A DNA stretch of 12,646 nucleotides. It comes from a virus (Duplodnaviria; Heunggongvirae; Uroviricota; Caudoviricetes). The notes beneath the pieces were generated by a model that saw only the letters and a list, made by a program, of their open reading frames with translations, searched no databases and had not been told where the DNA came from. A program made the translations under genes and the position numbers. Where the stretch lies: the IMG/VR virus record IMGVR_UViG_2531839662_000020; one strand, written 5' to 3'. This document shows positions 1 to 12,646 of this stretch, piece by piece (position 1 is the first letter of the stretch; the number at the start of each line of letters is the position of its first letter).

Positions 1-474
1 AGTTTGCTCCTGCCATAACGTGAAGAAGCAATGACCTGGTGGTCCGTGACTTCCCTACGCTGGCATTATCCAGATCAGGTGATACGGGTATTTCTTACTG
101 ATTTTTGTTATCAGTTGATAATTAATAAGTTTTTCAGCAAACAAGAATTAAAAACTTCAAAACTGACCACACAACTGACCACACATTTTGTTGAAGCTCT
201 ACGAACAAAGACGAACAATAACAAACAAAAGGGAAATTTGCTGGCAGTTTTGCTTAACCGTTATCATTTTTCGGCTATCCGTTATCAAGCTGGTGGATGA
301 TCACGGATAACCCGTTATGGGAATCCCCATATCGGCATCATGCCCACCAGCATGAAGTATTTTTCGCGGATGTAAAAATTTGACGGGGCGGGCGGTCCCA
401 TAAGCAATGGGGGGGTAGGGATTCCGCTCCCCCCCCCTCCCGAATGCAATTTTTCTTATATATATACAAAACAG

Positions 475-629
475 TGCGGGTTATGCGGGTTAGCGGGTTA
501 TCTTCGCGTGCTAAGTATTTTTTATTCTTTAATATCAATGCGTTAAAAAATGATATGTTTGAATATTAGCCAAAACGTAACCCGCAAGACATTCAAAATA
601 ACCCGCAAATACCCCCCAAATAACCCACA
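475..629. repeat. Iteron cluster B: 3 tandem TGCGGGTTA repeats, AT-rich spacer, 3 inverted TAACCCGCA copies at about 21-bp phasing
   Basis: Direct copies at 475-483, 484-492 and 493-501. AT-rich stretch 502-577. Inverted copies at 578-586, 599-607 and 621-629 (last one degenerate, TAACCCACA). Same 9-mer as cluster A at 9086-9219. Confidence 0.7.
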
Positions 630-915
630 ACCCCATCAGGAAAATGGGGCCAGTGATGCCACCGAACGGCTGAATCTGGTAACGTTCTGTTGCCTGGTTG
701 CAGTTTGCGGGTCAGCAATACTGACGCACAAAGTTAGCCGTATGTGGCTGTGCGTCCACCAGCTACGCCGGAATGGGGTATTCCGTTTCAACGGAACAGG
801 TATGACGAATATGATCGCACCTTCTCCCGAAAACGGGTTTGCCTGTTTCGGGAAAACGGGCACATGAAGCTGCATAGACATTTTCACTATTCAGGATCTG
901 GCGGGGGAGTTTCTC

Positions 916-1050
916 AATTTCCACCGTTGGTGGAAATTAAACGAATACAGCGAGTTAGGACAAGGTGACTAATGGTCACTCTGTTGCTGCGTCACCATAT
1001 TGATGATCCAGCCCTGTAGTCGCGCCACTTTTCCACCAATGGTGGAAAAG
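916..1050. repeat. Pair of near-identical 23-bp palindromes (10-bp arms, 3-bp spacer)
   Basis: AATTTCCACC-GTT-GGTGGAAATT at 916-938 and CTTTTCCACC-AAT-GGTGGAAAAG at 1028-1050. Related dyads nearby: GTGAC-TAATG-GTCAC at 965-979 and CCCCC-AAT-GGGGG at 1073-1085. Confidence 0.6.
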
Positions 1051-1191
1051 CCCACAGCAGGCCGCCCAGCCTCCCCCAATGGGGGATTGTGGAAGAATCA
1101 ACGGGTTAGGCCTTAATCATCTGCGTAATCATAAGTAATCATAATGTTCATTCATCCAGCGCAATTTTGCGTTATCGGGAATATCAGCAAG

Positions 1192-1476
1192 TTACCGCCG
1201 CAACCGCTCCGGCTTCTTCCAGTGGTAAGTTATTTTTTCCTTCTCCCGGTACATCTCCACGCGGCGACGATATGACAACAACTCCAGAACTCTGATCCGT
1301 ATGTCGCGCATATCCACGCCGTTAAGCTCAATACCGTCACGGCGCATCACCTCAGCCACCACACGCGCGTAATTTTCGGCTATCACGCTGTCCGGCTGCG
1401 TGGCCTCCTGTTTGCCTGCTTCCTGGCTGATTCCGGTAATGCGGCGGATTATTTTTAGTAGTTCGGTTTCGCTCAC
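1192..1476 (-). CDS. Hypothetical protein, 94 aa, last gene of the packaging operon
   Basis: ORF from track with GTG start 5 nt after the large terminase stop, same strand. Arg/Glu-rich and probably helical. No family recognised. Next in-frame Met is 43 codons in. Confidence 0.45.
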   Translation of the reverse strand: MSETELLKIIRRITGISQEAGKQEATQPDSVIAENYARVVAEVMRRDGIELNGVDMRDIRIRVLELLSYRRRVEMYREKEKITYHWKKPERLRR

Positions 1477-1481
1477 TCTCG

Positions 1482-3143
1482 TTATACCCCATCAAACGCC
1501 GCAAGCCGCTCTTTGTGGCTGTCGCTCATATCGAATGCAAATTCCTCATGTTCTGCCTGGAATGTGCCAAACGCCATCAGCGCCGCAACGCTCGGGTCTA
1601 TCTTGTTGGATGATTTTTTCTTGTTCGGCTTGATATTGGCGTTCGCGTCACTCTGCATCACAACATTACTCATTGACCAGGCCAGCACCGGATCGCCACG
1701 ATGCACAATCACCTTCCGGTTAACAAAAACTTCGAACGATTTCGCCGCCGGACTGAAACGAAGGTATGTTTGCGGGAACGGCTCCACCTCAAATCCTGCC
1801 CCCTGTAGCTGCGTCCTCAGGTGCGTGGCGTTCCATGTATCGAAGCCCACCAGCCTGATATTGAAATTCTCTGCATCCGCCATGATGTCATCACGGATAC
1901 GGTCATAATCAATGCAGTCACCCGGTGTTGTGCGTATCCAGCCCGCCTTTACCCACTGGCGATAGATGGCGCGGTTTTTATTGGCGGGGTTCTGTAGCTG
2001 AAACTCCGGCAGATAGTGACGGGAAACCAGCATAATCTTTTTACCGACCGGAAAGGCATAGCACACGCTGGAAATATCGCTGGTTGATGATAAGTCCAGC
2101 CCCGCGTAGCACTCCTGCCCGTATAAATCCGCCTCCGCGAACGTTCCGGCGCACTCCGCCCATGCACCGTTACCCATCCACGGCGTGGCCCCCTGACACC
2201 AGATATTGAATCGCTTAGTGAGCATTTCCACCCACTGCGACGGAATACCCCGCGCTTTCTGGATGGTTGAGGCCAGTTTTTCACGATCGACGGAAACATC
2301 GATATTGGGATTCGCCTTTATCCACATCGCCGGATCGTCAACCTCGCTTTCATCATCCAGCTCGTAAATCAGCACGAACATGGATTCGTTCACCTCTTCA
2401 CCATCCAGTATCTGGCAGCAATAGTCGTAGTGTTGTTTACAGGCTGAAACAACGTTGCTCCCCGATGTGGTGATGGCAAATAATAACCCCTCCGGACGCG
2501 CCCCCATTCCCAGTTCAAGCGCGGAATAAACCCCGTTGTCAGGGTGCAGGTGATATTCATCCACAATGGCAAGACTCGGGTTTGTACCTTCAATGGTTGC
2601 CGCTTTTGCTGCCAGTGGCTTTAACAGGCTGTTGGTTTTCGGGTGTATCACCTTGTGTGCCTGAATATTTACCCGCTTTCGCAACGGTCGGGATAAAAGG
2701 CACATCTGACGCGCATCATCAAACACGATCCGCGCCTGATCACGACTCACGGCGGCGGTGTAAATATCCTGCTGCCCGTTTTCCATAACCAGAAACCAGT
2801 TAGCCAGGATAGCGGCGACCGTGGATTTGGCATTTTTTCGCGGCACTTCAATGAATGCGCTGGTGTATTTGCGCCGTCCGGTGGCCTTAACCTTAAAGCC
2901 CAGGATGCACGCAAAGGCGAACTGCTGCCACGGCTCCAGCTCAATGGGGCTACCGCGCATTGCGCCTTTTACGTGCGGACACACCCTGGAAAAGGCAATA
3001 AACCGCTCCACGACCTCCGGATCGAACGTGTAAAGGGGGTTTTCAAGGTCAGAAAAATACCGTTTAACGGCCTGTTTCAGTCGTTTACAGGCCGTAATTT
3101 TGCCGTTTTTTACGCCTTCTGCGTACTCATGCCAGGCGGTCAA
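1482..3143 (-). CDS. terL: Terminase large subunit (Terminase_1-like)
   Basis: 553-aa ORF with LEPWQ...F motif and P-loop-like VPRKNAKST near the N-terminus, then a nuclease-type C-terminal half. Apparent TTG start preceded by GAGGA. Overlaps the small terminase by 17 nt. Confidence 0.88.
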   Translation of the reverse strand: MTAWHEYAEGVKNGKITACKRLKQAVKRYFSDLENPLYTFDPEVVERFIAFSRVCPHVKGAMRGSPIELEPWQQFAFACILGFKVKATGRRKYTSAFIEVPRKNAKSTVAAILANWFLVMENGQQDIYTAAVSRDQARIVFDDARQMCLLSRPLRKRVNIQAHKVIHPKTNSLLKPLAAKAATIEGTNPSLAIVDEYHLHPDNGVYSALELGMGARPEGLLFAITTSGSNVVSACKQHYDYCCQILDGEEVNESMFVLIYELDDESEVDDPAMWIKANPNIDVSVDREKLASTIQKARGIPSQWVEMLTKRFNIWCQGATPWMGNGAWAECAGTFAEADLYGQECYAGLDLSSTSDISSVCYAFPVGKKIMLVSRHYLPEFQLQNPANKNRAIYRQWVKAGWIRTTPGDCIDYDRIRDDIMADAENFNIRLVGFDTWNATHLRTQLQGAGFEVEPFPQTYLRFSPAAKSFEVFVNRKVIVHRGDPVLAWSMSNVVMQSDANANIKPNKKKSSNKIDPSVAALMAFGTFQAEHEEFAFDMSDSHKERLAAFDGV

Positions 3144-3483
3144 GCTCGTCCTCTTCCTCTGTTTCCGGTGGATTTCTGCGGCGACTTACCGGGTCAAAAC
3201 CCAGCAAAGAAGCCATTTTGATCATTATTCTTTCCGCGTCAGCCTTTGCGCTCAGGGCGGGGTTTCTGCTCTCGCTGCCCTGACTGTTAACAATGCTGAA
3301 CCCGCGCGTGGCAAGGTCTTCGACGGCTTTGCGGTATATGGAGTAGTTAACGCAATATAGCTCCAGATTGCTCCAGTCGGCGGGGGTAAGGTCTTCCCGT
3401 CCGGAAAGCTGGCGCGATTTTTCCTTCCACTGCCTGACCGCGATTTCATCCAGGTAAGCGGGGGCTTTTGGTGGTCTTGCCAT
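3127..3483 (-). CDS. terS: Terminase small subunit, P27 family-like
   Basis: N-terminus MARPPKAPAYLDEIAVRQW is typical of P27-type small terminases and the length is about 118 aa. The longer track ORF (to 3624) is rejected as an N-terminal extension. Sits immediately upstream of terL. Confidence 0.75.
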   Translation of the reverse strand: MARPPKAPAYLDEIAVRQWKEKSRQLSGREDLTPADWSNLELYCVNYSIYRKAVEDLATRGFSIVNSQGSESRNPALSAKADAERIMIKMASLLGFDPVSRRRNPPETEEEDELDRLA

Positions 3484-3771
3484 GTTCTCTTTTCGCCCAA
3501 TTATTTTCAAAAAAAATCCCGTGCACAAAAATTTGAGGAGGCGGTCGGTGTCCGGCAGGGACGGTTTTGTCCTGAAAACCTCCCCCACCCCCTCTGACGG
3601 CCTCACCAGCGATTGCGAAAACATTCCATGACCTCGCGGTCACGGTCGGTTAATTGCTTCGCTGTGGTGCGTTCTGTGCGCCCTGTCCTGTTGGCTTTGT
3701 GCCCTGTCTCCTGTGTCTTCCATAAGTCACGCTGCCTTATCAGTCCACGTATCAGCCTGTTTTGCTCCTGT
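3484..3771. other. Candidate cos / terminase recognition region (HNH-TerS intergenic)
   Basis: 288-bp non-coding gap between the HNH gene and terS, the position cos occupies in HK97-like phages. Contains two 15-bp direct repeats (3676-3690 and 3698-3714), a C-rich tract at 3578-3600 and an A-tract at 3509-3530. Cut site not determinable from sequence. Confidence 0.3.
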
Positions 3772-4212
3772 TCAGTCATCATCGCCATACATCCAGTCGT
3801 TACGGTGTGCCGCCCGTTCTTCCTGCTCGCGATACATGCCCGCCTTACGGTTCGCTTTCGTGGCTGGATCTTCCCGTGTCGTCTTACGGTTGTGGCACGT
3901 CTGGCACAATGCCTGGTGATTCCACTCAGGCCAGAAGAGAACATCACCGCCGCCATTGATGGGAATGATGTGATCCACCACAAGAGCTGGCGTATAAATC
4001 CCCTTAGCCAGACAACGCACGCATAACGGGTTTTTGCTCAGGTACAGGGCGCGGTATTTGTCCCACTGTCGGGAATACCCGCGCGCGCGGCGGTGTCCCC
4101 GTCTGGCATCCTCTGCACGCCATGCAGCCCGCCTGTGCTCTTCACACTTTCCGGACTTCACGCGCTTATTACAGCCCGGCTCAGTGCAGCGCCTTAATGG
4201 TTGCCACGGCAT
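3772..4212 (-). CDS. HNH endonuclease (packaging-associated)
   Basis: 146 aa with CxxC...VDHIIP...N.Q.LC..CHNRKT HNH/zinc-finger motif. Start overlaps the connector stop (TGATG). Located just upstream of terS as in HK97-like packaging modules. Confidence 0.85.
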   Translation of the reverse strand: MPWQPLRRCTEPGCNKRVKSGKCEEHRRAAWRAEDARRGHRRARGYSRQWDKYRALYLSKNPLCVRCLAKGIYTPALVVDHIIPINGGGDVLFWPEWNHQALCQTCHNRKTTREDPATKANRKAGMYREQEERAAHRNDWMYGDDD

Positions 4213-4510
4213 CAGTACACCCCCACATCACGATAAACCGACCAGAGCGCAGAAATAGCCATAGGCAGTTCAGACTGCTCCACAGGTGAAACCGCTTCCC
4301 TGTTCTCGTACAGGAAAGCGATGTACATCAGGCAACCAACACGTATTGCCGGGGTAAATTCCAGCCCGTCTTCAAAACGTTTCCCGATATGCTTCTGGCA
4401 GGCTTCCAGCGCCGCATCGGTATACATTTTCAGAAGTTCGCCTTCTCCGGAAAAGTCATCAAGGCGAAGATGTGCCCTGACTTCATCAGGTGTAATTTTG
4501 TCTTCACTCA
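4212..4510 (-). CDS. Head-tail connector protein, gp6-like
   Basis: About 99 aa from MSEDKITPDEVRAHLRLDD, which resembles gp6-type connector N-termini. Overlaps the portal 3' end by 7 nt. The 128-aa track ORF is trimmed to this ATG. Confidence 0.65.
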
Positions 4511-5718
4511 TCTTTTTCACCTTTAATTTCCACAGTCTGCTTCCATGCCTGGCTGAACTCGTCGCCACCTTCACGCGGCGGCATTCCCTCACGCTCACGG
4601 GCTTCGTTCGGATTCATGATCCCGTTCTTAATCCCTTTCTCATACGTGGCGTAACGTTCAGTAGGTGTGGCGCGCAGTAAATCGGCTGAATCAAACTCAA
4701 CCAGATAACGGGTACCAGGTACGGGAGAAGCCACCAGCAAAGCGGCCTTGATTTGCTGTTCGAAGTTCGCCAGCCACGGACGCATTGTCATAGTCAGAAA
4801 CGCGCGGCTTGCCTCACTGAAATTGCTGTAGGTGCTGTTGCTGTATTCCTGCAGAAAAATCGGCGACACGTTGAACATCCGGGCGATGTCTTCAATGGAG
4901 AAGCGACGGGAGGCCAGCCATTCCGCATCCTGGTTACTCATCCCCAGTTGCTTGTAATCCATGCCCCCTTCAAGGATTGGCGTTTTTCCGGCATTTTTCG
5001 CCCCCTTGTAGCGTTCCAGTGCGTCTAATGCCTGTTTACCTTTCACGCCGTCCAGCCATTCGCCTGACGTGATAATCCCTGCCGCCATCATGCCATCTTT
5101 CATAATGCTGGCTCCGTGACGCTGTTGAGCAAGGCCAAGCCCCAGCGCCTCACGGCAAATCGTGATGGGGGAGCGTCCCAGAAAGCCATCATCCGAGGCA
5201 TAGCGGAGATGCAGAACTTCTTCCTGTAAATACGTGCGCACCGTTCCTGTACAGGGTTCGGTGATGGTATAGCGGTATTTGTGTGCGCCTGTGCGTTCCG
5301 GTACAACACACCCCGGCGCATAAGGATGAAGTGATTTTGGCTGACCGTCCCGCCCCCATTCAATAACCGCATAGGCGTTACCGTTCAGCAGGCAGTGACG
5401 CATCATTGTGCGTTTAAACTGGTAAGGTGTCTGGCACGAATTAGGCTGCTCATTCAGCAGAATATCTACCGGATGACTGTCCAGCCATTCCCGCGCCTCC
5501 CTGCCCTTGTCATTACGTACCAGATACAGATAACACGGCATCGTGGCCACCGCCTCAGCGATGACGGAAACCGCGTTCATCACTGCGGGCAATGATTCAG
5601 CCGTCCCGGCAGAAACATATTCTCCGGATCCGGTATTCGGTACGCCGGACAGCACCAGAAAATCATCAATGGACAGGTTACGTTGCTCGCTTTTTTTACG
5701 ACTAAAAGGCCACCACAT
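4504..5718 (-). CDS. Portal protein, HK97 family-like
   Basis: About 404 aa when started at the ATG at 5718 (MWWPFSRKK...), 1 nt after the protease stop. Size and position between protease and connector fit a portal. The upstream 73 codons of the track ORF overlap the protease gene and are rejected. Confidence 0.8.
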   Translation of the reverse strand: MWWPFSRKKSEQRNLSIDDFLVLSGVPNTGSGEYVSAGTAESLPAVMNAVSVIAEAVATMPCYLYLVRNDKGREAREWLDSHPVDILLNEQPNSCQTPYQFKRTMMRHCLLNGNAYAVIEWGRDGQPKSLHPYAPGCVVPERTGAHKYRYTITEPCTGTVRTYLQEEVLHLRYASDDGFLGRSPITICREALGLGLAQQRHGASIMKDGMMAAGIITSGEWLDGVKGKQALDALERYKGAKNAGKTPILEGGMDYKQLGMSNQDAEWLASRRFSIEDIARMFNVSPIFLQEYSNSTYSNFSEASRAFLTMTMRPWLANFEQQIKAALLVASPVPGTRYLVEFDSADLLRATPTERYATYEKGIKNGIMNPNEAREREGMPPREGGDEFSQAWKQTVEIKGEKDE

Positions 5719-5719
5719 A

Positions 5720-6280
5720 TCACAACCCCGCCAGCTCTGCCCAGCGATGACGATTATTTCCTGCCGGGCGTAATTCAGGGTGCTGTGCAAACAACGAACG
5801 GTGGGCAATCTCCACGCCAGATTCGGGATAAGCAGGCATCGACGTGATCGTGATTTCCCTGAGTTCTGCAGCGGTAACAGTACGCAGATACGGTTTTTGC
5901 GCGATATTCCACTCTTCGCATAATGCGCGAAAGCCAAAGCTCATCCCTGTAATGTCGCCACGCTCCACCAGCGTAAGCACATCTTTTCCAAGCTGGGTAT
6001 CAGGCGGTGTCAGTTCAAAACGTAGCCCGGTGTTGTCCTCAGTCAGTACCAGAGTGCCGGATTTGGTGCGCCCCAGCAGTTGGGTATAGTCATGCTCATA
6101 CAGGCAGCGCACATCATTACCCGCCGCCAGATAGTCAGCAAAAGCCCCCGGCGTGAACTGTTCGCGGAATTCGTCCCAGATAATTTCTGAAAGGCTGTTC
6201 CAGCGAACGGCATACCCCACCAGCTTTTTATTGCTGGCGGTCAGTTCAGATGTGCGGATTTCAAAATCGGTGTTTTTCAT
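5720..6280 (-). CDS. Prohead protease, HK97 family (S78-like)
   Basis: 186 aa with GGAG RBS 8 nt upstream of ATG. Sits between capsid and portal. Family recognised by eye from overall sequence and size. Confidence 0.8.
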   Translation of the reverse strand: MKNTDFEIRTSELTASNKKLVGYAVRWNSLSEIIWDEFREQFTPGAFADYLAAGNDVRCLYEHDYTQLLGRTKSGTLVLTEDNTGLRFELTPPDTQLGKDVLTLVERGDITGMSFGFRALCEEWNIAQKPYLRTVTAAELREITITSMPAYPESGVEIAHRSLFAQHPELRPAGNNRHRWAELAGL

Positions 6281-6296
6281 CGGTGTACTCCATAAA

Positions 6297-6322
6297 GCTG
6301 AAAAAGGAGGCCGCAGCCTCCT
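6297..6322 (-). terminator. Intrinsic terminator-like hairpin between capsid and protease genes (possible attenuator)
   Basis: On the minus-strand transcript: 7-bp GC-rich stem AGGAGGC / GCCUCCU (6305-6311 with 6316-6322), 4-nt loop, followed by UUUUU (6300-6304). Lies directly after the capsid stop at 6335. Confidence 0.4.
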
Positions 6323-6334
6323 CCTTACTCATGA

Positions 6335-7504
6335 CTAGCCAGCTTTCATTTCCAGAATTTTGATGGCGTTTGAATCCACCACACCACCGCCCAGATATTT
6401 ATCCGTGTGGACCTTGTAGAATCCGGGTTCAGTAATGTTGTCCGGTCGGGTGCGAATCCCTGTTACATGATCAACGATGAAATAACCACGACTGAAATCG
6501 CCAACCGCTAGCGGTGCTTTTCCTGCGCCGATGTCCGGCATGGACTCCAGGCAGAAAACAGGACGACCAAGCAACATATCCGGCGCACCTTCTTTAAGGC
6601 TGTCGCGCCAGATATAATCGCCATTCTCATTTTTCAGCTTCTGTAGTGTCCCTGCCGTGCCCGAGTTCATCACCCAGACGGCATTTTTGCGGTATTTCGC
6701 TTTCAGCTTGTAGAGAATGTCGATCAGTTCGTCCGCTGTAATGGCGGTTCCACTTGCCGCTACCACTTTTTCAATGGTGCCAAAAGCGCGGGTTTTGTCA
6801 CTGGTCGCCGCACGGGTGTAAGCCATGAAGCCTTTCGGCTTGCCGTTACCGTCGCCATTAACAAAATCATCCTCTTCGGTGCTGGCGAACGTGTCGGCAA
6901 TTTCGGAGGATAACCAGCCCAAAATATCCACCTCTGAAAAATCCAGGATTTCCTGCGTGGTTTTCGGGTAGGCGTAGATCTGATTCAGCTTGATGGTTAC
7001 ACGTTCAATTTTCGGGGTGTTGGTTTCACTACGTGCGCTGCCTTCTGTGCCTCGTCCTACAGTTGCGCCGCCAGTGGAAACCAGTTTCTGAAACTCATTT
7101 GATTTTGCGGTCTTCACGGTCGCGATCACGCGCATAACACTGTCATCCTGTAGCTGGCGCATGACTTCGCGATCAAGCTCAGGAATTACGGTATATCCGC
7201 CATCCCTGCCGCTGTCAGTGCTGGTGGACAGTGATCGCACATCTCCGGTTACGATGTAGTTACGCAATTCATCAGATGATAATTTCTGGATGCCCGTTCC
7301 TGGCTTGCTGCGTTCTTCATCAGCCACAGACTCGAGGCGGTAAATTTCTGTGTCGAGGGAATCGGCTTTTGCACGCAGTTCATCAAACTGTTTGCCCTCG
7401 TCATCGTTCAGGCTGCGGTTTTCACTGTCGGCTTTTTCCAGCAGGGATCGCATCTGGTTTTTCAGGGCGGTTTTTTGCTGGCGGAGTTCGATTAATTTCT
7501 TCAT
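6335..7504 (-). CDS. Major capsid protein, HK97 fold, with N-terminal delta/scaffold domain
   Basis: 389 aa. N-terminal about 100 aa is charged and coiled-coil-like (delta domain), followed by an HK97-like MCP body. First gene after the candidate late promoter. Confidence 0.85.
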   Translation of the reverse strand: MKKLIELRQQKTALKNQMRSLLEKADSENRSLNDDEGKQFDELRAKADSLDTEIYRLESVADEERSKPGTGIQKLSSDELRNYIVTGDVRSLSTSTDSGRDGGYTVIPELDREVMRQLQDDSVMRVIATVKTAKSNEFQKLVSTGGATVGRGTEGSARSETNTPKIERVTIKLNQIYAYPKTTQEILDFSEVDILGWLSSEIADTFASTEEDDFVNGDGNGKPKGFMAYTRAATSDKTRAFGTIEKVVAASGTAITADELIDILYKLKAKYRKNAVWVMNSGTAGTLQKLKNENGDYIWRDSLKEGAPDMLLGRPVFCLESMPDIGAGKAPLAVGDFSRGYFIVDHVTGIRTRPDNITEPGFYKVHTDKYLGGGVVDSNAIKILEMKAG

Positions 7505-7653
7505 GAAGGTTTTCTCGTATTGGTTAAGATTCAGGACGTGAAACCAACACGGAGGGAGCGCCGCCCGACACTCTCGGCATCTCGCAGATCAACCCGGCAT
7601 CGCGCAGGGGGTCAGGCGGCATTGTGGCGGCTCACGTCTGAGTGCCACACGCC

Positions 7654-7726
7654 AACATATACATAAAAATCAGTATGTAAACATCAGCCAGAATCACCGA
7701 ACAACCTGGAACAACCACGAACAAAT
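7654..7726 (-). promoter_or_regulatory. Candidate activator-dependent late promoter for the capsid operon
   Basis: On the minus strand: -35 TTTACA (7676-7681), 16-bp spacer, -10 TATGTT (7654-7659). Upstream are three direct repeats GGTTGTTC / GGTTGTTC / ATTTGTTC with 10-bp phasing (plus-strand GAACAACC at 7699-7706 and 7709-7716, GAACAAAT at 7719-7726). Confidence 0.35.
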
Positions 7727-7741
7727 AATTTACAAAACCTG

Positions 7742-7770
7742 AAAAAAAGACCTGGAGAAAATCCAGGCCT
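7742..7770 (-). terminator. Rho-independent terminator ending the early/replication operon
   Basis: On the minus-strand transcript: stem 7762-7770 pairs with 7748-7756 (9 bp, one mismatch), loop 7757-7761, then a U7 run (plus-strand A7 at 7742-7748). Lies 9 nt after the stop of the 82-aa gene. Confidence 0.65.
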
Positions 7771-7778
7771 TTATCGCT

Positions 7779-8027
7779 TTATTGTTTCACTGGATCCCGC
7801 ATTCTGCGTCTTATTTTCCACAGATATTCGATCATCGCTTCCACCTGCTCACGATTGGTTGCGAAAATTTCCCCGGTCAGTGAGCTGCGCAGAAAATCAT
7901 GATGATCCACAACAAACAACGCATCGGAAGAAAGCAGACGGCGATATTTTTTTGCTGTCGTGGTTTCCAGATCATCAAAACCATGAAACTTTTTATGTTG
8001 CTGGACTTCTTCAAATGTCACTGGCAT
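7779..8027 (-). CDS. Hypothetical protein, 82 aa, translationally coupled to the ProQ/FinO gene
   Basis: ATG start at 8027 overlaps the upstream gene's 3' end by 10 nt. No family recognised. Followed by the terminator. Confidence 0.5.
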   Translation of the reverse strand: MPVTFEEVQQHKKFHGFDDLETTTAKKYRRLLSSDALFVVDHHDFLRSSLTGEIFATNREQVEAMIEYLWKIRRRMRDPVKQ

Positions 8028-8560
8028 GTATCCCCCTTTGCTGCCCGGCGCTGGCGCTTGTGCTTCTCATTCAGCGCCATCAGCCGCGTTTCTGCCTCCT
8101 GCTGTTCCTGTGGTGTCACTTCCCCACATGGCTGGCCTTTCAGGTCGTATCGTACCCCACCAGCAACCAGGGCGCGGTAATAGCGCGGAGACTGCGCATA
8201 AGATGCCAGCGTCGCACGTAATGCCCCCGGCCCGAATGCCAGCCCCCTGACGGCGAGATCCTGCATCAGGTCGTCGAATATCCCCACCTTAAGCGGCTTC
8301 GGTGCTTCCCTGTTGAATAAGTCAGGCCACATCTCAGTGAGGCGGTTAACGCGCCTGCGGTTTTTGCGCTGGCGTTTGGTCATATGCCGCCACGGTGTCA
8401 CCCCTGTGGGCTGCCCTTTGCGGCTCTGCTGTGCGTTCTGATTGCCGGGTATCACTTTATGCGCCGATGTGGTTTTATCCCGCTCTTGCGCCGCCTGCGT
8501 CGTTTTCTGCGGCGTGCCGTAAATGCCTTTCGGTTTTCGGTTAATGGTCAGCTTTGTCAT
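8018..8560 (-). CDS. ProQ/FinO-domain RNA-binding protein with basic N-terminal extension
   Basis: C-terminal two-thirds (WPDLFNREAPKPLKVGIFDDL...LRATLASYAQSPRYYRALVAGGVRYDLKGQPCGEVTPQEQQEA) matches the ProQ/FinO N-terminal domain pattern recalled from E. coli ProQ. N-terminal about 70 aa is Lys/Arg/Gln-rich. AGGGGAAGG RBS. Confidence 0.75.
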   Translation of the reverse strand: MTKLTINRKPKGIYGTPQKTTQAAQERDKTTSAHKVIPGNQNAQQSRKGQPTGVTPWRHMTKRQRKNRRRVNRLTEMWPDLFNREAPKPLKVGIFDDLMQDLAVRGLAFGPGALRATLASYAQSPRYYRALVAGGVRYDLKGQPCGEVTPQEQQEAETRLMALNEKHKRQRRAAKGDTCQ

Positions 8561-8596
8561 GCCTTCCCCTGTAATTACTCTGTTCGCTGTTGTGAA

Positions 8597-9022
8597 TTAA
8601 AACGGTATGTTATCCCCGTACAGGTCATCGTGCTGGCCTGTCTGTTGTTTTGCCCTGTTCAGTGCGTCAGTGGCCTGCCCCTGTTGGCCTTTTTTGCCGC
8701 CCGGTCGCGCCGTTCTCGCACTGATTACGCTGTCTGCGATGACCTGCCAGCCCTGCCGCGTTTCGCCGTTCTGCCCTGTCCACTGGCTTACCTGCATGTT
8801 ACCCGCCACGTTCACCAGTTCGCCTTTGCGGTGTTTTGCCAGTGCGTCGGCCTGTCTGCCAAACGCCAGGACGGATAACCACATCGTCGCCGTTCCGTCA
8901 TCTGCCTGGCTGCATGGCAGGGGAACCGCCATACTCGCCATCGCCATTTGTGTTCCCTTGCTGGTGGTCTTTAACTGCGGGTCAGCCACCAGCCGCCCGT
9001 AAGCCGCTATCTGTGCTGTCAT
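8597..9022 (-). CDS. ssb: Single-stranded DNA-binding protein (SSB)
   Basis: 141 aa. OB-fold-like N-terminal region (GRLVADPQLK...), Gly/Gln-rich linker, and acidic C-terminal tail DDLYGDNIPF resembling the SSB DDDIPF tip. Confidence 0.8.
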   Translation of the reverse strand: MTAQIAAYGRLVADPQLKTTSKGTQMAMASMAVPLPCSQADDGTATMWLSVLAFGRQADALAKHRKGELVNVAGNMQVSQWTGQNGETRQGWQVIADSVISARTARPGGKKGQQGQATDALNRAKQQTGQHDDLYGDNIPF

Positions 9023-9085
9023 GCTGTCTGCTCTCCGGTTTTAACGTTGATGGTTACGCTTGTTTACACCCTTACGGTGAAATTC

Positions 9086-9219
9086 TGCGGGTTATAATCG
9101 CACTTTTGCGGGTTATAACTGCCGTTTTGCGGGTTACGTGCGGGTTATTGATTTCCTTTTTATTCATACAGTTAATGCACTTATATACATGATAACCCGC
9201 ATAACCCGCATAACCCGCA
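9086..9219. repeat. Iteron cluster A: 4 direct TGCGGGTTA(T/C) repeats (spacing 21/21/11 bp), AT-rich spacer, 3 tandem inverted ATAACCCGC
   Basis: Direct copies at 9086-9095, 9107-9116, 9128-9137 and 9139-9148. AT-rich stretch 9149-9191. Inverted tandem copies across 9192-9219. Lies in the 220-bp gap between the primase-helicase stop and ssb start. Confidence 0.75.
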
Positions 9220-9241
9220 ACTTTTCACCTCACACAGGGGG

Positions 9242-11365
9242 TTAATCTTCTGCCTCAGGCTGGAACATCAGCACGTAAAAAACATGCTGCTTCCCCCCAA
9301 TTTTGCCGAGCGCCTTTTTCTTGTAACGGCGATCGTTACCCGCTTCCAGCATTCCGGCAGCACTCAACGCGCGGGCAAAGTGAGACGGATTAAATCCCTG
9401 TGCTATCTCACCCTCAAATACATGCGGGAACGTGTAAAAACGGAACTCGTCATCTTCGTTTCTGATACTCCCCTTTCTGTATCCGGCAAGTTCTTTAATC
9501 GGTAAATCACGCTCGTCGGTATTGGGCCACGGAAGGTATCTGCTGAATCCGAACGACGCTAAAAAAGCTTCTGCCTGTTCAACCATCTGTTTAAATTCCC
9601 TGTTACCCGTGCCGAACTCCTTCACCCAGGCATTAAAATTATGCTGTATGGCATCGCGGCATTCCTGCTCATCCCAGCCAGTAACATGACCTGAAAGCAC
9701 AAGCGCGGCCTCCAGTATGGCAAATCGCTCCCCCACACGGTGAACCTGTTCGCCGTAGCTCTCCGGTATCAGGTTGCGCCACCGCTCACGGCATGTCCTT
9801 ACCGTGTCCTTTGCCTCCTGCTGGTGTTCTGCCAGCCATTTAACCCACTCACGACCCGCCGCCCCGTGATTTTCTGTCCAGGCATCCTTTAACGCGTCTG
9901 CGTGCGCCTTTCCGGTGCTGTATTCGTGAAATTGCGTGGCTTTTTCCATCGGAACGTTAAGCAGGCGGACAAGCTGCCCCGCTTTGACTTTTATCCCCTC
10001 CGTTTTGAGGAATGTCTCAACGTCCATTTCTCCGGTGCTGATTGCCACCGTGCGCCAGTGTTTGATCTCCCTGTTGCCGCCGTCCTTCGCCCCCTGTAAT
10101 TTCCCCGAACCGTTAAACAGCGTATAGGCTGACGTGGACACCTCCCGCGCGTTTCCGGCCTGGCCTATTTCATCCAGGGGTAAAAGCCCGTCATTGTGTG
10201 CCTCTGCTTCGTTGGCGATACCTAACGCTGTGCCGTACCAGGTCAGCCGCTGCGCGTCCGGCTCTCCCCATAAACTTGATGCGATGTTCTGTGTGGTGGT
10301 TTTCCCTGCCGATGACTGTTCGAAAAGATGTACCCCGAAGCCGTCAGCGCCCACCAGCCCGATTAATGGTGCGGATAACGATACCGCCACACCCAGCATC
10401 ATGGACGGATTACCACCAGCCAGCCGCGCAACGATATCGCGCCAGCCCTCCGCCGTTCCTGCCACGGAATAGCCATTAACAGCAGCCGTTTTTCCGGTAA
10501 ACAGGACTGGCTTTTCGCAATCACCAATGACCGAACCGTCCGGCATGATGTACGCGCCAAAATGCCAGCCCGTTGTTGTGCTTAACTGCCATTCCTCATG
10601 GCTTCCGCTTAACTGCATCCAGTCAGCCAGGATAGCCCTGTATTTACCGTTGGTTGTTACGTTCAGTCCGTGGTCTTTCAGCAACCGCCAGCCGTCACGG
10701 TCGCCAATGCCACCGCACGGAACCGCCATTGTGATGACTTCATGGTTTGCTAATTTTTTCCAGCGCATCACGCGGTAATGCTCTTTACCGATTGTCCCCG
10801 TTCCCAGTAGTTCAAGCGGGGAACATAACCACGTCTCAGGCCGGATAATTTCGCCTGACTGCTTATCCACTTTTGGCGTTACCCAGAAAACACCATCGGC
10901 GCGACTTTCAACGCGGGGCTTTAATTCATCATCGCCCTGGATTTCTGTGATTTTTTTCTTTAAGGGCAACACCAGACTTTCCCCGCGCTCGTATTCGTCT
11001 TTGAGGCGAGGCAACTGGTCGGATAAATCCGCCGGGCTGATGTCAGTTATCCCCGCGTATTCGTATACGGTCTTCACGCCAGCCACAGCCAGCAACGTGA
11101 CGATCTGTGTAAGGCTACGTTCAGTGATGTGCCCTGCGCGGTAAACACGCACACACTGACGGCTATCATCAATAATTTGATAACCGGTAATATCTTTCAG
11201 GTGTTCATCTGACAGAACGACAGGCGGCACATTGTCGGCGGCAATATGCTTACCTGCCCATTCCTGCCACTCTTTCGCATGGCTCCACGCATCACTACCC
11301 GCAAAGATGATAACCTCCGTCATTTTGTCGGCTGGCTGGTGCTTTAAGTTTGGTGCGCGCTTCAT
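9242..11365 (-). CDS. Replicative primase-helicase (toprim-like N-terminus, P-loop NTPase core; DUF927-like)
   Basis: 707 aa. Walker A-like SSAGKTTT in the central region. Overall resemblance to satellite and prophage primase/helicase replication proteins. ATGA overlap with the upstream small gene. Followed by iterons. Confidence 0.8.
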   Translation of the reverse strand: MKRAPNLKHQPADKMTEVIIFAGSDAWSHAKEWQEWAGKHIAADNVPPVVLSDEHLKDITGYQIIDDSRQCVRVYRAGHITERSLTQIVTLLAVAGVKTVYEYAGITDISPADLSDQLPRLKDEYERGESLVLPLKKKITEIQGDDELKPRVESRADGVFWVTPKVDKQSGEIIRPETWLCSPLELLGTGTIGKEHYRVMRWKKLANHEVITMAVPCGGIGDRDGWRLLKDHGLNVTTNGKYRAILADWMQLSGSHEEWQLSTTTGWHFGAYIMPDGSVIGDCEKPVLFTGKTAAVNGYSVAGTAEGWRDIVARLAGGNPSMMLGVAVSLSAPLIGLVGADGFGVHLFEQSSAGKTTTQNIASSLWGEPDAQRLTWYGTALGIANEAEAHNDGLLPLDEIGQAGNAREVSTSAYTLFNGSGKLQGAKDGGNREIKHWRTVAISTGEMDVETFLKTEGIKVKAGQLVRLLNVPMEKATQFHEYSTGKAHADALKDAWTENHGAAGREWVKWLAEHQQEAKDTVRTCRERWRNLIPESYGEQVHRVGERFAILEAALVLSGHVTGWDEQECRDAIQHNFNAWVKEFGTGNREFKQMVEQAEAFLASFGFSRYLPWPNTDERDLPIKELAGYRKGSIRNEDDEFRFYTFPHVFEGEIAQGFNPSHFARALSAAGMLEAGNDRRYKKKALGKIGGKQHVFYVLMFQPEAED

Positions 11366-11676
11366 TTTGCCTTTCCCCGTTCACGAATAATTTCACGTAC
11401 TGCCTTAATGCGTTCCATTCCTGTAACGCGCATGATTCTGTCGATGTCGCTTAATTCTGCTGGTGGTGCTTTACTTACCAAGGTGAACTCCCTGTCAAAG
11501 CGCATATGTGACGACACGCAGGGATGCGCATAACCTTCGCGGATATAGGTCACACGAAAATCATCGACGGTTTTGATCGTTATCGTGCTGCCGTATTTAT
11601 CCTGGAAAATATCGCCGGGGCGGATTTCAGGCCGAGCGGGGCCGCTGGCAGTAAAGCCAGAATTTTTCTTTTTCAT
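11362..11676 (-). CDS. Hypothetical protein, 104 aa
   Basis: ATG with GGAG upstream. Stop overlaps the primase-helicase start (ATGA). Basic C-terminus. No family confidently recognised. Confidence 0.55.
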   Translation of the reverse strand: MKKKNSGFTASGPARPEIRPGDIFQDKYGSTITIKTVDDFRVTYIREGYAHPCVSSHMRFDREFTLVSKAPPAELSDIDRIMRVTGMERIKAVREIIRERGKAK

Positions 11677-11681
11677 GTTTT

Positions 11682-11900
11682 TTACTCCAGAGGCAGCTTT
11701 TTAGCGGCGAGCTCAATATCAGATGTCAGAGAAACCTGTGTATTTGCCAGGTCTAACAACAAAGAAATAAGAATTTCTTCTCTGCTATCGGATTTATCGG
11801 TGCTAAGGCTGTTCATCCACATATTGACGACTTCCCTGATTTTTTTCGCAGAGTGCAGGGCTTCAAATGCCAGGTCTTCAATATCATGTTTATTTCGCAT
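11682..11900 (-). CDS. Hypothetical protein, about 72 aa (start uncertain: 11900, 11915 or 11930)
   Basis: Track ORF 11682-11930 has a TTG start. The in-frame ATG at 11900 is preceded by a G-rich SD-like run. Overlaps the 3' end of the upstream gene. Predicted helical. Confidence 0.45.
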   Translation of the reverse strand: MRNKHDIEDLAFEALHSAKKIREVVNMWMNSLSTDKSDSREEILISLLLDLANTQVSLTSDIELAAKKLPLE

Positions 11901-12252
11901 AATCGCCCCCGCCATTTTCACAATCAGCAATCAGGATGGCTTTTGCCTCATTCAGCGCCATATCAGCACTAAATTGCATAACAGCCAGTGAGTGAGGAAC
12001 GAAAGCCCCGGCATATTCTGTTTCGCTGGTGGCCTCAATGGTAATCACACGCGGTTGTGCCGTGCTCAGGGCGATAAAACGCCAGATGTATTTATTCAGG
12101 TTGTGCAAGTCCCGCCCTTGCGGGTGTGTGGTATGATTTAACATAGCTACCTCGATAATCTTGCTATCGTTGGTGGTTAGAAGCCCGGTTAGTGTTAGCG
12201 CACTGCCGGGTTTCGTCGTTTGTATTTCAATAAAACCATTGGTGTGTTTCAT
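11890..12252 (-). CDS. Hypothetical protein, 120 aa, first gene of the early operon (alternative start at 12144 gives 84 aa)
   Basis: 3' portion of the 247-aa track ORF. The part upstream of 12252 is antisense to the plus-strand gene and low-complexity, so is rejected. ATG at 12252 lacks an SD; the ATG at 12144 has GAGGT 5 nt upstream. Confidence 0.45.
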   Translation of the reverse strand: MKHTNGFIEIQTTKPGSALTLTGLLTTNDSKIIEVAMLNHTTHPQGRDLHNLNKYIWRFIALSTAQPRVITIEATSETEYAGAFVPHSLAVMQFSADMALNEAKAILIADCENGGGDYAK

Positions 12253-12340
12253 GTTATTTTGGAGTGAAACACACGTCAAGCCTTTTTTGTATTTCTTTTT
12301 TGTGTATACTGAAACACACCAAATTTGAGGAGTTTCAGTT
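12241..12340. promoter_or_regulatory. Divergent control region with three copies of TGAAACACAC(C/G)
   Basis: Copies at 12241-12251 (inverted, overlapping the ATG at 12252), 12264-12274 and 12310-12320. The first two form an 11-bp-arm inverted repeat with a 13-bp spacer. Plus-strand -10-like TATACT at 12305-12310 and GAGGAG RBS at 12326-12331. Confidence 0.5.
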
Positions 12341-12646
12341 ATGGCGACTACCAACAAAAACGCTAAATCACAATTGACCACCGTCAGAGTCCCCCACGAT
12401 GTTATGGAGGGCATGGAATCCGTAAAACTGGACGGCGAAAGCAACGCCGGATTCATAGTAACCGCCATGCGCGGTGAGATCGCCCGCCGCCAGGCAGAAG
12501 GAAGCGGAGAAAATCCCCTGGTTTCTTCGCTCGATGCACTGGCGCAGGTGGAAAAAATTGGAGTCAAGGCTGCCGAGGAGATCGGGCAACTCGTCGCCGT
12601 CGCGCGTGAAGAACTCCAGCGCCGCAAGGCCAAAGAATCAGAATAA
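12341..12646 (+). CDS. Putative small DNA-binding regulator (possible ribbon-helix-helix fold)
   Basis: 101 aa. Strong GAGGAG RBS 9 nt upstream of ATG. Only plus-strand gene, divergent from the early operon. N-terminal LTTVRVPHDVMEGMESV fits a beta-strand-then-helix RHH pattern; fold assignment is tentative. Confidence 0.6.
   Translation: MATTNKNAKSQLTTVRVPHDVMEGMESVKLDGESNAGFIVTAMRGEIARRQAEGSGENPLVSSLDALAQVEKIGVKAAEEIGQLVAVAREELQRRKAKESE

Follow-up and report, generated by a model that had tools for sequence, protein, structure and literature searches.

A probable cf-PICI of the EcCIEDL933 family in the thiM leader of Escherichia coli, without a head-closure gene

A set of genes for building and filling a phage head, with no tail genes beside them, raises the question of what kind of element carries the set and how its particles would become infectious. 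The locus considered here lies in IMG/VR virus record IMGVR_UViG_2531839662_000020, whose whole stretch of 12,646 nucleotides is called the window. An initial annotation, made from the letters alone, read positions 1,192 to 7,504 as a head-only HK97-type module belonging to a satellite that makes heads of its own and takes its tails from a helper phage. Our analysis argues for this reading and refines it: with a probability of about 0.88, judged from sequence, the window covers the greater part of a capsid-forming phage-inducible chromosomal island (cf-PICI) that belongs to the EcCIEDL933 family and is integrated in the thiM leader. The kind of element is already known, and this one is an ordinary, uncharacterised member except that its lineage lacks the head-closure gene, one of the two genes for joining head to tail.

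Edges and backbone of the island

In E. coli UMNF18, an island between thiM and rcnR matches the window at 99.6% identity. The edges of the island were set by the empty site of K-12 and by a 14-bp att duplication, whose core, ATACGGGTATTTCT (positions 82 to 95, the thiM-proximal junction), occurs twice in L001 (12082-12095 and 28029-28042) and once in the K-12 empty site. In UMNF18 the distance between the two cores is 15,947 bp, or ~15.4 kb after subtraction of a 543-bp extra segment; the right end lies beyond the window, and the size is that read from this 99.6% identical copy. Positions 1 to 81 (minus strand) are chromosomal and outside the island. They represent the thiM 5' leader, which includes the 3' half of the TPP riboswitch of thiM, and over bases 1-95 the sequence is the same as that of K-12 (100% identity). 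The TPP aptamer scores 71.2 bits in K-12 and only 31.7 bits at window positions 35-126. The island copy splits this riboswitch, and its carriage may change the regulation of thiamine salvage.

The integrase, a 406-aa tyrosine recombinase adjoining rcnR in UMNF18 and L011, and the AlpA regulator, a 74-aa HTH protein in UMNF18 (PF05930, E=1.9e-16), are encoded just past the right end of the window and were read only from copies that are 99.6-99.9% identical. Within the window, a regulatory zone (11362 to 12646) contains a DUF4222 protein, a 72-aa ORF and an Icd-like ORF on the minus strand and a YlcI/YnfO-family ORF on the plus strand (12341-12646). The DUF927 replicase, of the PICI pri-rep type (707 aa; 9242 to 11365, minus strand; PF06048, E=6e-46), has a first iteron/AT-rich origin unit immediately 3' of its gene (9086 to 9219). 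Also on the minus strand are the genes for SSB (8597-9022), a ProQ/FinO-domain protein (8018-8560) and an 82-aa ORF (phrog_1957; within 7779 to 9022).

The stretch below 1192 had been described as non-coding. It is indeed without a credible gene: PHROG scans of five ORFs in 1-1191 returned no family, and a PGAP 'hypothetical protein' at 31-300, which spans the att junction, is probably spurious. However, it is not empty, holding the thiM leader, the att core, arm repeats, an origin-like unit and palindromes. Two copies of AACTGACCACAC and three of ACGAACAAAA at 159 to 228 (plus strand) are probably integrase arm-type sites, and these 70 bp recur at 91% identity beside int at the other end of the island (L001 27874-27943). 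The second origin-like unit (446 to 629) has TGCGGGTTA iterons arranged as inverted arrays on either side of a spacer of 73% AT; it contains 16 iteron matches, as compared with 2.9 expected, and is 80% identical to the sequence directly downstream of the EcCIEDL933-type replicase gene. Two 19-bp palindromes, TTTCCACCnnnGGTGGAAA, lie 112 bp apart at 918 to 1048. An Rfam scan gave two sub-threshold matches only.

With the whole island delimited, the head-only reading was put to the refuting test proposed in the initial annotation. Across the whole annotated island there are no tail, tape-measure or lysis (holin/endolysin) genes, and the reading stands. Judged by features drawn from Alqurainy 2022, SatelliteFinder (de Sousa 2023) and He 2025, the island has the size of a cf-PICI (~10-18 kb between att repeats), an integrase, AlpA, a replicase with its ori, capsid, protease and portal, a connector, HNH/TerS/TerL, and the gene order of the group, as well as its lack of tail and lysis genes; the head-tail adaptor, PF05521, is missing. 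The match in size, int-alpA-replicase-ori backbone, packaging set and gene order supports a satellite with its own heads and helper tails.

Head and packaging genes

All seven family calls of the initial annotation (capsid, S78 protease, portal, gp6-like connector, HNH, TerS and TerL) were upheld by Pfam and PHROG searches, with coordinates unchanged except for the start of terS, and every feature of this section is on the minus strand. The major capsid protein (389 aa; 6335 to 7504; PF05065, E=7.5e-72) has an HK97 fold with an N-terminal delta domain. It matches PDB 9gyi with E=1e-153, and chain 9gyi_B, over the residues shown in the alignment (1-380), has the same sequence as the capsid protein of the O157:H7 Xuzhou21 island, which is taken as EcCIEDL933-type. 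The 227-248 loop region is kept in the window protein. Then come the HK97-type prohead serine protease S78 (186 aa; 5720 to 6280; PF04586, E=5e-46), the portal (404 aa; 4504 to 5718; PF04860, E~3e-93) and the gp6-like head-tail connector (99 aa; 4212 to 4511; phrog_40, E=9.5e-29). The last of these, PHROG Ad1 and the 'connector' of He et al., scores 21.0 bits with PF05135, slightly below the Pfam cut-off of 21.2.

The packaging proteins are an accessory HNH endonuclease (146 aa; 3772 to 4212; PF01844; phrog_144, E=3.6e-45), a small terminase, TerS, of the P27 family (118 aa; 3127 to 3483; PF05119, E=4e-23), and a large terminase, TerL (553 aa; 1482 to 3143; PF03354 and PF20441; phrog_9, E=4.5e-181). 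The start of TerS had been placed at 3624, but position 3483 is the most likely one. The module also contains two small ORFs rather than the one originally counted. A 61-aa ORF (3603 to 3788; phrog_3173), which overlaps the 3' end of the HNH gene, is a homolog of EcCIEDL933 'gene 1792' (80% aa identity), whose mutation severely lowers transfer of that island. The island ends with a 94-aa ORF (1192 to 1476; phrog_1561), which is 77% identical to its EcCIEDL933-type homolog and for which a PDB sequence search gave no meaningful relative. It was considered as a stand-in for the head-closure protein and rejected, since the adaptor-containing EcCIEDL933-type island carries it too; a homolog also closes a classical PICI in Nissle 1917.

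The 119-bp intergenic region upstream of terS (3484 to 3602) is conserved across islands and is a candidate cos site. In the linear record of a packaged cf-PICI, vB_KppS-Ant, the end corresponds to a motif at window positions 3569-3591 (minus strand) and the start lies 22 nt before terS, a lead to the location of cos rather than a demonstration of it. A second cos-like copy at 374-396 (23 nt at 87% to 3527-3549, E=0.036) is missing from other islands and was dropped. The region upstream of the capsid gene (7505 to 7778) contains a weak sigma-70-like site (7681-7654) and a 543-bp deletion relative to UMNF18; a promoter/terminator scan gave no enrichment over shuffles.

The missing head-closure gene and its consequences

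A tblastn search for a PF05521 head-closure ('head-tail adaptor') gene gave no match, either within the window or across the complete UMNF18 island. Nor is there space for such a gene, since the stop codon of the portal gene overlaps the start of the connector gene. The same uninterrupted, adaptor-less junction occurs in 143 complete E. coli genomes, at 92.8-100% identity, and the gene is also missing from all 46 close IMG/VR relatives and from 6 clades that are more divergent. The absence counts against the cf-PICI reading, because adaptor and connector together decide productive tail joining, and the 2025 work treats the adaptor as a determinant of tail specificity (He et al., 10.1101/2025.02.11.637232); the island falls outside the strict eight-gene packaging list of those authors. 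Also against the reading are the frameshifts in TerS and HNH of the UMNF18 copy and the location of the integrase and AlpA genes beyond the window, and no packaged-DNA record of the adaptor-less lineage was found in the phage collection. The SatelliteFinder quorum, however, still admits elements with 10/11 core components ('Type B', 459/969 elements), and Alqurainy et al. (10.1101/2022.09.08.507074) describe members as having the full set of components or most of it.

It could be argued that the lineage is a cf-PICI that has become transfer-defective, loss of the head-closure gene having left heads that can be neither closed nor tailed, with only vertical or domesticated persistence. The role of adaptor plus connector in determining productive tail joining would agree with this, as would the UMNF18 copy, in which TerS and HNH are frameshifted, so that some copies are decaying. 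Yet all packaging ORFs of the window copy are intact, and the packaging genes (dN/dS of 0.02-0.27 against two diverged copies) are kept under purifying selection. Against it stand also the spread of the same junction through 143 genomes, the close relatives and the divergent clades and the presence of the module at three or more attB sites, with integrase and replicase modules swapped, and we consider this explanation improbable. Still less likely is a decayed HK97-like prophage from which the tail, lysis and lysogeny modules have been deleted. The island's genes for head and packaging do derive from phages, and the host genome is rich in HK97-like prophages, but the edges are precise and att-bounded, with an empty site in K-12; the backbone is that of a PICI (int-AlpA-Icd-like-DUF4222-DUF927-ori); the gene order is unlike that of phages; the head genes share only 27-41% identity with their counterparts in the resident type of prophage, which hosts sister copies of the island; and the module is shared by no phage record. 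A head module that packages random host DNA in the manner of a gene transfer agent is the most far-fetched of the three. The second-best PDB matches of the capsid protein, 6tb9 and 6tba (E ~3e-56), are Rhodobacter capsulatus capsid proteins, as the search output names them, which we take to be those of that organism's gene transfer agent. Against this, the island has its own integrase, replicase and origin, is mobile between attB sites, has an HNH/TerS/TerL set resembling that of cos-packaging cf-PICIs and, unlike gene transfer agents, has no tail genes.

For the preferred reading, a cf-PICI, the likely class of helper is suggested by sister copies that match window positions 434-12221 at 98-99% identity and whose capsid, portal and connector proteins are the same. 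In these copies, which keep the second origin-like unit, the insertion lies near codon 339 of terL (585 aa) in HK97-like lambdoid prophages, a junction placed by comparison with intact terL and of the kind named A:Terminase_1:245/246 (Tommasini, Mageeney & Williams 2023, PMC10111431). The hosting prophages encode a PF05521 head-closure protein. This embedding points to HK97-like lambdoid prophages as the candidate helper class, for which a terL-fragment probe matched 931 of 5,426 complete E. coli genomes. No phage connector in the phage collection is more than 38% identical to that of the island, and thus the helper is not identifiable by connector similarity.

By homology with EcCIEDL933, each dynamic step of the life cycle may be sketched as follows. 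A helper phage would switch on the island's AlpA; the island would be excised at the 14-bp att core and would replicate from the iteron origins by means of the DUF927 replicase and SSB. The capsid-to-TerL genes would be transcribed as one minus-strand operon, and the HK97-fold capsid protein, S78 protease and portal would build a small prohead; the prototype has a T=4 capsid, which fits a 15.4-kb genome. HNH, TerS and TerL would cut cos, probably in the gap upstream of terS, and unit-length island DNA would be packaged. The portal would then receive the gp6-like connector, and the particle would become infectious only once a helper phage tail joins it. Helper, induction and packaging specificity had been put forward as open and novel questions, but published work has largely settled them for the cf-PICI family, describing how helper phages induce the islands through AlpA, how HNH, TerS and TerL package at cos, the T=4 capsids and the hijacking of tails. 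Helper induction, self-made small capsids, exclusive self-packaging and tail hijacking have been shown for EcCIEDL933 and a few others only.

In the adaptor-less lineage, the neck would be finished either by a head-closure protein from the helper or through contact of the connector directly with the tail. A tentative proposal, which we regard as possible though on balance doubtful, is that adaptor-less cf-PICIs borrow more than tails, a helper PF05521 protein docking on the satellite's gp6-like connector and closing the heads. If this is true, tail compatibility and the uptake of foreign tails by released tail-less capsids would hinge on a mixed satellite-helper neck, and the frequent embedding in terL of PF05521-encoding HK97-like prophages would be its ecological correlate. 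A large conserved sub-lineage without the 'adaptor', which current work regards as one of the two determinants of tail choice, makes the make-up of the satellite neck directly testable.

Comparison with known systems

EcCIEDL933 is the prototype cf-PICI (10.1101/2022.09.08.507074; 10.1101/2025.02.11.637232). The window island is syntenic gene for gene with the O157:H7 island of this type, at 57-93% aa identity: TerL 93%, TerS 89%, HNH 84%, replicase 83%, portal 81%, capsid and protease 63% each, and connector 57%. Both measure ~15.4 kb, lack tail and lysis genes, and have an int-alpA-...-DUF4222-DUF927 replicase-iteron ori-SSB backbone and an operon running capsid-protease-portal-connector-HNH-small ORF-TerS-TerL-94-aa ORF. 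They differ in that EcCIEDL933 has a PF05521 adaptor between portal and connector, uses an attB on the phoQ side rather than in the thiM leader (the integrases are 67% identical), has a PerC-family gene in place of the ProQ/FinO-domain gene, and has its two iteron units adjacent, whereas in the window island they are 8.5 kb apart. Published descriptions give cf-PICIs the same gene set and 50-90% similarity between members, with a proteobacterial order of capsid-protease-portal-connector(s), then hnh-terS-terL. The capsid-first order noticed in the initial annotation agrees with this and is a hallmark of the group.

Islands of the KpCIDSM30104 / EcCIGN02175 type share the packaging order of the window, and the module is ~76% identical in nucleotide sequence over 57% of its length; unlike the window lineage, they contain both adaptor and connector genes. 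The packaged vB_KppS-Ant (LR881103.1) resembles this type by its adaptor and connector identities and has a 765-aa tape-measure-like gene after TerL, which the window island lacks. The sister copies in terL are helper-embedded PICIs (PMC10111431). The window copy, chromosomal and sited in the thiM leader, falls outside that class; the integrase of its lineage is only 42% identical to that of the embedded sisters, and the att cores are unrelated. The same packaging module occurs at three attB sites, where it is accompanied by different integrases, and replicase modules are swapped too.

Classical E. coli PICIs (EcCICFT073 type; Nissle 1917) share the int/alpA/Icd-like/DUF4222/replicase/SSB gene types and a 94-aa ORF homolog, but they lack portal, protease, connector, HNH and TerL and are packaged in helper-made capsids. 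HK97-like lambdoids (HK97, HK106, HK022 and the E. coli EC416 prophage) share the HK97-fold capsid, S78 protease, portal, gp6-like connector and HNH/P27-TerS/TerL. Unlike the window island, they have the order HNH-TerS-TerL-portal-protease-capsid-connector-head closure-tail genes and carry tail, lysis and immunity modules. The cf-PICI family, to which the window island probably belongs, occurs commonly in Enterobacteriaceae and carries DNA from one species to another by combining self-made capsids with foreign phage tails.

Island limits and integration within the thiM riboswitch

The window aligns over its full length, at 99.6% identity, with the chromosome of E. coli UMNF18, where the element is flanked by thiM and rcnR. 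In K-12, thiM directly adjoins rcnR, and alignment of this intergenic region to UMNF18 reveals two junctions with 14 bp in common. This att core, ATACGGGTATTTCT, is present at window positions 82-95 and at 28029-28042 of the UMNF18 island locus (L001). The repeat positions thus define the UMNF18 island as 15,947 bp long; the window copy is ~15.4 kb, the UMNF18 length minus a 543-bp segment (L001 19747-20289), which is missing at 7739-7748 and whose flanks are a 10-bp microhomology. In UMNF18, SMS-3-5, and SK0189, this segment separates the replication module from the capsid gene and contains a 168-aa plus-strand ORF (phrog_5789). To the right of the window, UMNF18 continues with the gene for an AlpA-family regulator (PF05930, E=1.9e-16), then a 239-aa ORF, and finally the tyrosine integrase gene. 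Within the att limits, no gene for a tail, tape-measure, holin, or endolysin protein was found, and the proposal of the initial annotation that the head module lacks such neighbors holds over the entire att-delimited island.

The att core (82-95) lies inside the aptamer of the thiM TPP riboswitch. The aptamer scores 71.2 bits in K-12 (thiM locus L005, 2337-2433), above the gathering score of 54.3, and 31.7 bits at the window junction (35-126); in UMNF18 no TPP riboswitch is matched at the gathering level. Integration of the island severs thiMD from its promoter and from the 5' riboswitch half, leaving it downstream of, and co-oriented with, the island packaging operon.

A capsid-forming island of the EcCIEDL933 type

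All credible window genes but one are on the minus strand. Profile searches confirmed every family that had been named from the sequence: an HK97-fold capsid (6335-7504; PF05065, E=7.5e-72), an S78 prohead protease (5720-6280; PF04586, E=5e-46), a portal (4504-5718; PF04860, E=3e-93), a gp6-like connector (4212-4511; phrog_40 Ad1, E=9.5e-29, with a PF05135 score of 21.0 bits, just below the cut-off of 21.2), an HNH protein (3772-4212; PF01844), a P27-family TerS (3127-3483; PF05119), and TerL (1482-3143; PF03354 and PF20441). The replication module consists of a DUF927 replicase (9242-11365) and SSB (8597-9022), and all of these genes lie on the minus strand. Instead of the single small ORF reported, there are two on this strand, one of 61 aa (3603-3788) that overlaps the end of the HNH gene and one of 94 aa (1192-1476) after TerL. 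TerS and HNH are intact in the window, whereas in the otherwise 99.9% identical UMNF18 copy they are annotated as frameshifted (L001 15126-15481 and 15769-16210, respectively). In the Icd-like regulatory zone, the SymR antisense RNA gives an Rfam match at 12145-12217 (+) that, at 33.6 bits, stays below the gathering score of 61. Immunity RNAs have been reported in the corresponding zone of P4-like satellites and PICIs.

The same gene order is found in an O157:H7 island (L002): int, AlpA-type HTH, Icd-like, DUF4222, DUF927, ori, and SSB, and then capsid, protease, portal, head closure, connector, HNH, small ORF, TerS, TerL, and a 93-aa ORF. We take this island to be EcCIEDL933-type, the comparison having been made on O157:H7 strains other than EDL933. 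Amino-acid identities between window proteins and their O157:H7 counterparts are 93% for TerL, 89% for TerS, 84% for HNH, 83% for the replicase, 81% for the portal, 80% for the small ORF, 77% for the 94-aa ORF, 63% for both capsid and protease, and 57% for the connector. The window capsid also matches PDB chain 9gyi_B (E=1e-153), which is identical to the O157:H7 capsid across the residues shown (1-380). EcCIEDL933, the prototype cf-PICI, is a 15.4-kb, AlpA-dependent island for which HK106 and HK446 are inducing phages; it builds T=4 capsids of its own, packages only itself, and requires only tails from its helper (10.1101/2022.09.08.507074; 10.1101/2025.02.11.637232). Given the match to this published family, the initial annotation was right in seeing a satellite that makes its own heads and borrows helper tails; the capsid-first order is already a published hallmark of cf-PICIs, not a novelty.

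The slot directly upstream of the head operon differs between the two islands. It holds a PerC-family regulator in the EcCIEDL933-type island and, in the window, a minus-strand ProQ/FinO-domain protein (8018-8560; PF04352, E=9e-25) between SSB and the head operon. At the other end of the operon, the 94-aa ORF has a homolog that is the last gene of a classical, non-capsid-forming PICI in Nissle 1917 (L006 9001-9282), and a search with the full module returned many short matches limited to this ORF. It appears to belong to the PICI backbone, not to the phage-derived head module.

Noncoding and cis-acting sequences

The 1.2-kb region at the left end (1-1191), described simply as non-coding in the initial annotation, is not featureless. 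It begins with the chromosomal thiM leader (1-81). Beyond the att core lies a 70-bp block (159-228), composed of tandem AACTGACCACAC and ACGAACAAAA repeats, whose 91% identical copy adjoins int at the other island end in the same orientation (L001 27874-27943). These end blocks are probably the integrase arm-type sites of attP. Two nearly identical, perfect 19-bp palindromes, TTTCCACCGTTGGTGGAAA (918-936) and TTTCCACCAATGGTGGAAA (1030-1048), lie 112 bp apart; none of the other islands examined has them. Directly downstream of the 94-aa ORF, the non-coding stretch 1086-1191, which contains two tandem copies of GTAATCATAA, shares 96% identity with its counterpart in the EcCIEDL933-type island (L002 10795-10898), much above the adjacent coding DNA (about 83%).

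The window contains 16 matches to the iteron TGCGGGTTA, where 2.9 are expected. In a distal unit (446-629), inverted arrays of these iterons flank a spacer of 73% AT, and a second unit (9086-9219), also with an AT-rich spacer, adjoins the replicase gene; both are candidate origin-like elements. The two units lie side by side downstream of the replicase in the EcCIEDL933-type island (L002 19253-19568), whereas 8.5 kb separates them in the window. Even helper-embedded copies that have lost the 94-aa ORF retain the distal unit.

The linear record of vB_KppS-Ant (L007; LR881103.1), a packaged Klebsiella cf-PICI, starts 22 nt before terS and ends exactly with a 23-nt motif that is conserved at window 3569-3591(-). 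This suggests that cos may lie within the intergenic gap 3484-3602. Directly after TerL, vB_KppS-Ant has a 765-aa gene with a tape measure annotation (L007 2036-4333); the corresponding slot of the window is only non-coding.

The missing head-closure gene and a candidate helper

The single real difference from the EcCIEDL933-type island is the lack of the 112-aa gene (PF05521, phrog_25 "head closure Hc1") located there between portal and connector. In the window, the end of the portal gene overlaps the beginning of the connector gene, and no Hc1 homolog was detected by tblastn in the window or the entire UMNF18 island. The EDL element and a Klebsiella element are 35% identical in PF05521 and 62% in PF05135; the values published by He et al. 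are 35% and 63% (10.1101/2025.02.11.637232), and thus their "adaptor" is PF05521 and their "connector" PF05135. He et al. show that adaptor and connector together govern the range of phage tails available to a cf-PICI capsid (10.1101/2025.02.11.637232).

Among 5,426 complete E. coli genomes, the contiguous, adaptor-less portal-connector junction is present in 143 (92.8-100% identity) and the EcCIEDL933-type Hc1 gene in 355. In IMG/VR, 77 loci have a readable portal-connector junction. Hc1 is absent from all 46 whose connector is at least 88% identical to that of the window and from 6 of the 31 more divergent loci (L062, L070, L071, L076, L080, and L082). Connectors of these six are only 56-67% identical to that of the window, and therefore the adaptor-less architecture occurs in several clades. 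Adaptor-less modules reside at thiM/rcnR, at clpS/cspD, and inside prophage terL, with differing integrases and replicases, and their genes have dN/dS values of 0.02-0.27. As judged from these comparisons, the absence of Hc1 is a lineage trait rather than an accident. Under the SatelliteFinder model, the island would count 10 of 11 core components and be "Type B", the largest class (459 of 969 elements; de Sousa 2023).

Many contigs encode a capsid protein identical to that of the window, and in six of eight places among the matches listed, the island is inside terL of an HK97-like lambdoid prophage. These sister islands, such as that of E. coli EC416 (L016 18754-34732; also L008, L009, L012-L015, L020-L033, L037, and L081), share window 434-12221 at 98-99% identity and have the same structural proteins with a different integrase module. 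Comparison with intact terL places a 14-bp overlap near codon 339 of the 585, and thus a precise excision would regenerate the gene. Tommasini et al. 2023 describe this helper-embedded PICI configuration; their list of sites includes "A:Terminase_1:245/246", and a 16-kb element of E. coli is among the examples that they name (PMC10111431).

The window is an uncharacterised member, from an adaptor-less lineage, of a kind of element on record since 2022, with catalogued examples in hundreds of genomes. The sole point with some novelty is whether the absence of the adaptor alters what the island takes from its helper. The host prophages have the order HNH-TerS-TerL-portal-protease-capsid-connector-head closure, plus lambda-like tail genes, and matches to a probe for this type, a terL fragment, occur in 931 of the 5,426 genomes. 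It is reasonable to infer that this prophage class would help the island and provide the missing head-closure protein. Head proteins of the island and the prophage are 27-41% identical, as with EcCIEDL933 and HK106, whose relation has likewise been described as one of "low identity".
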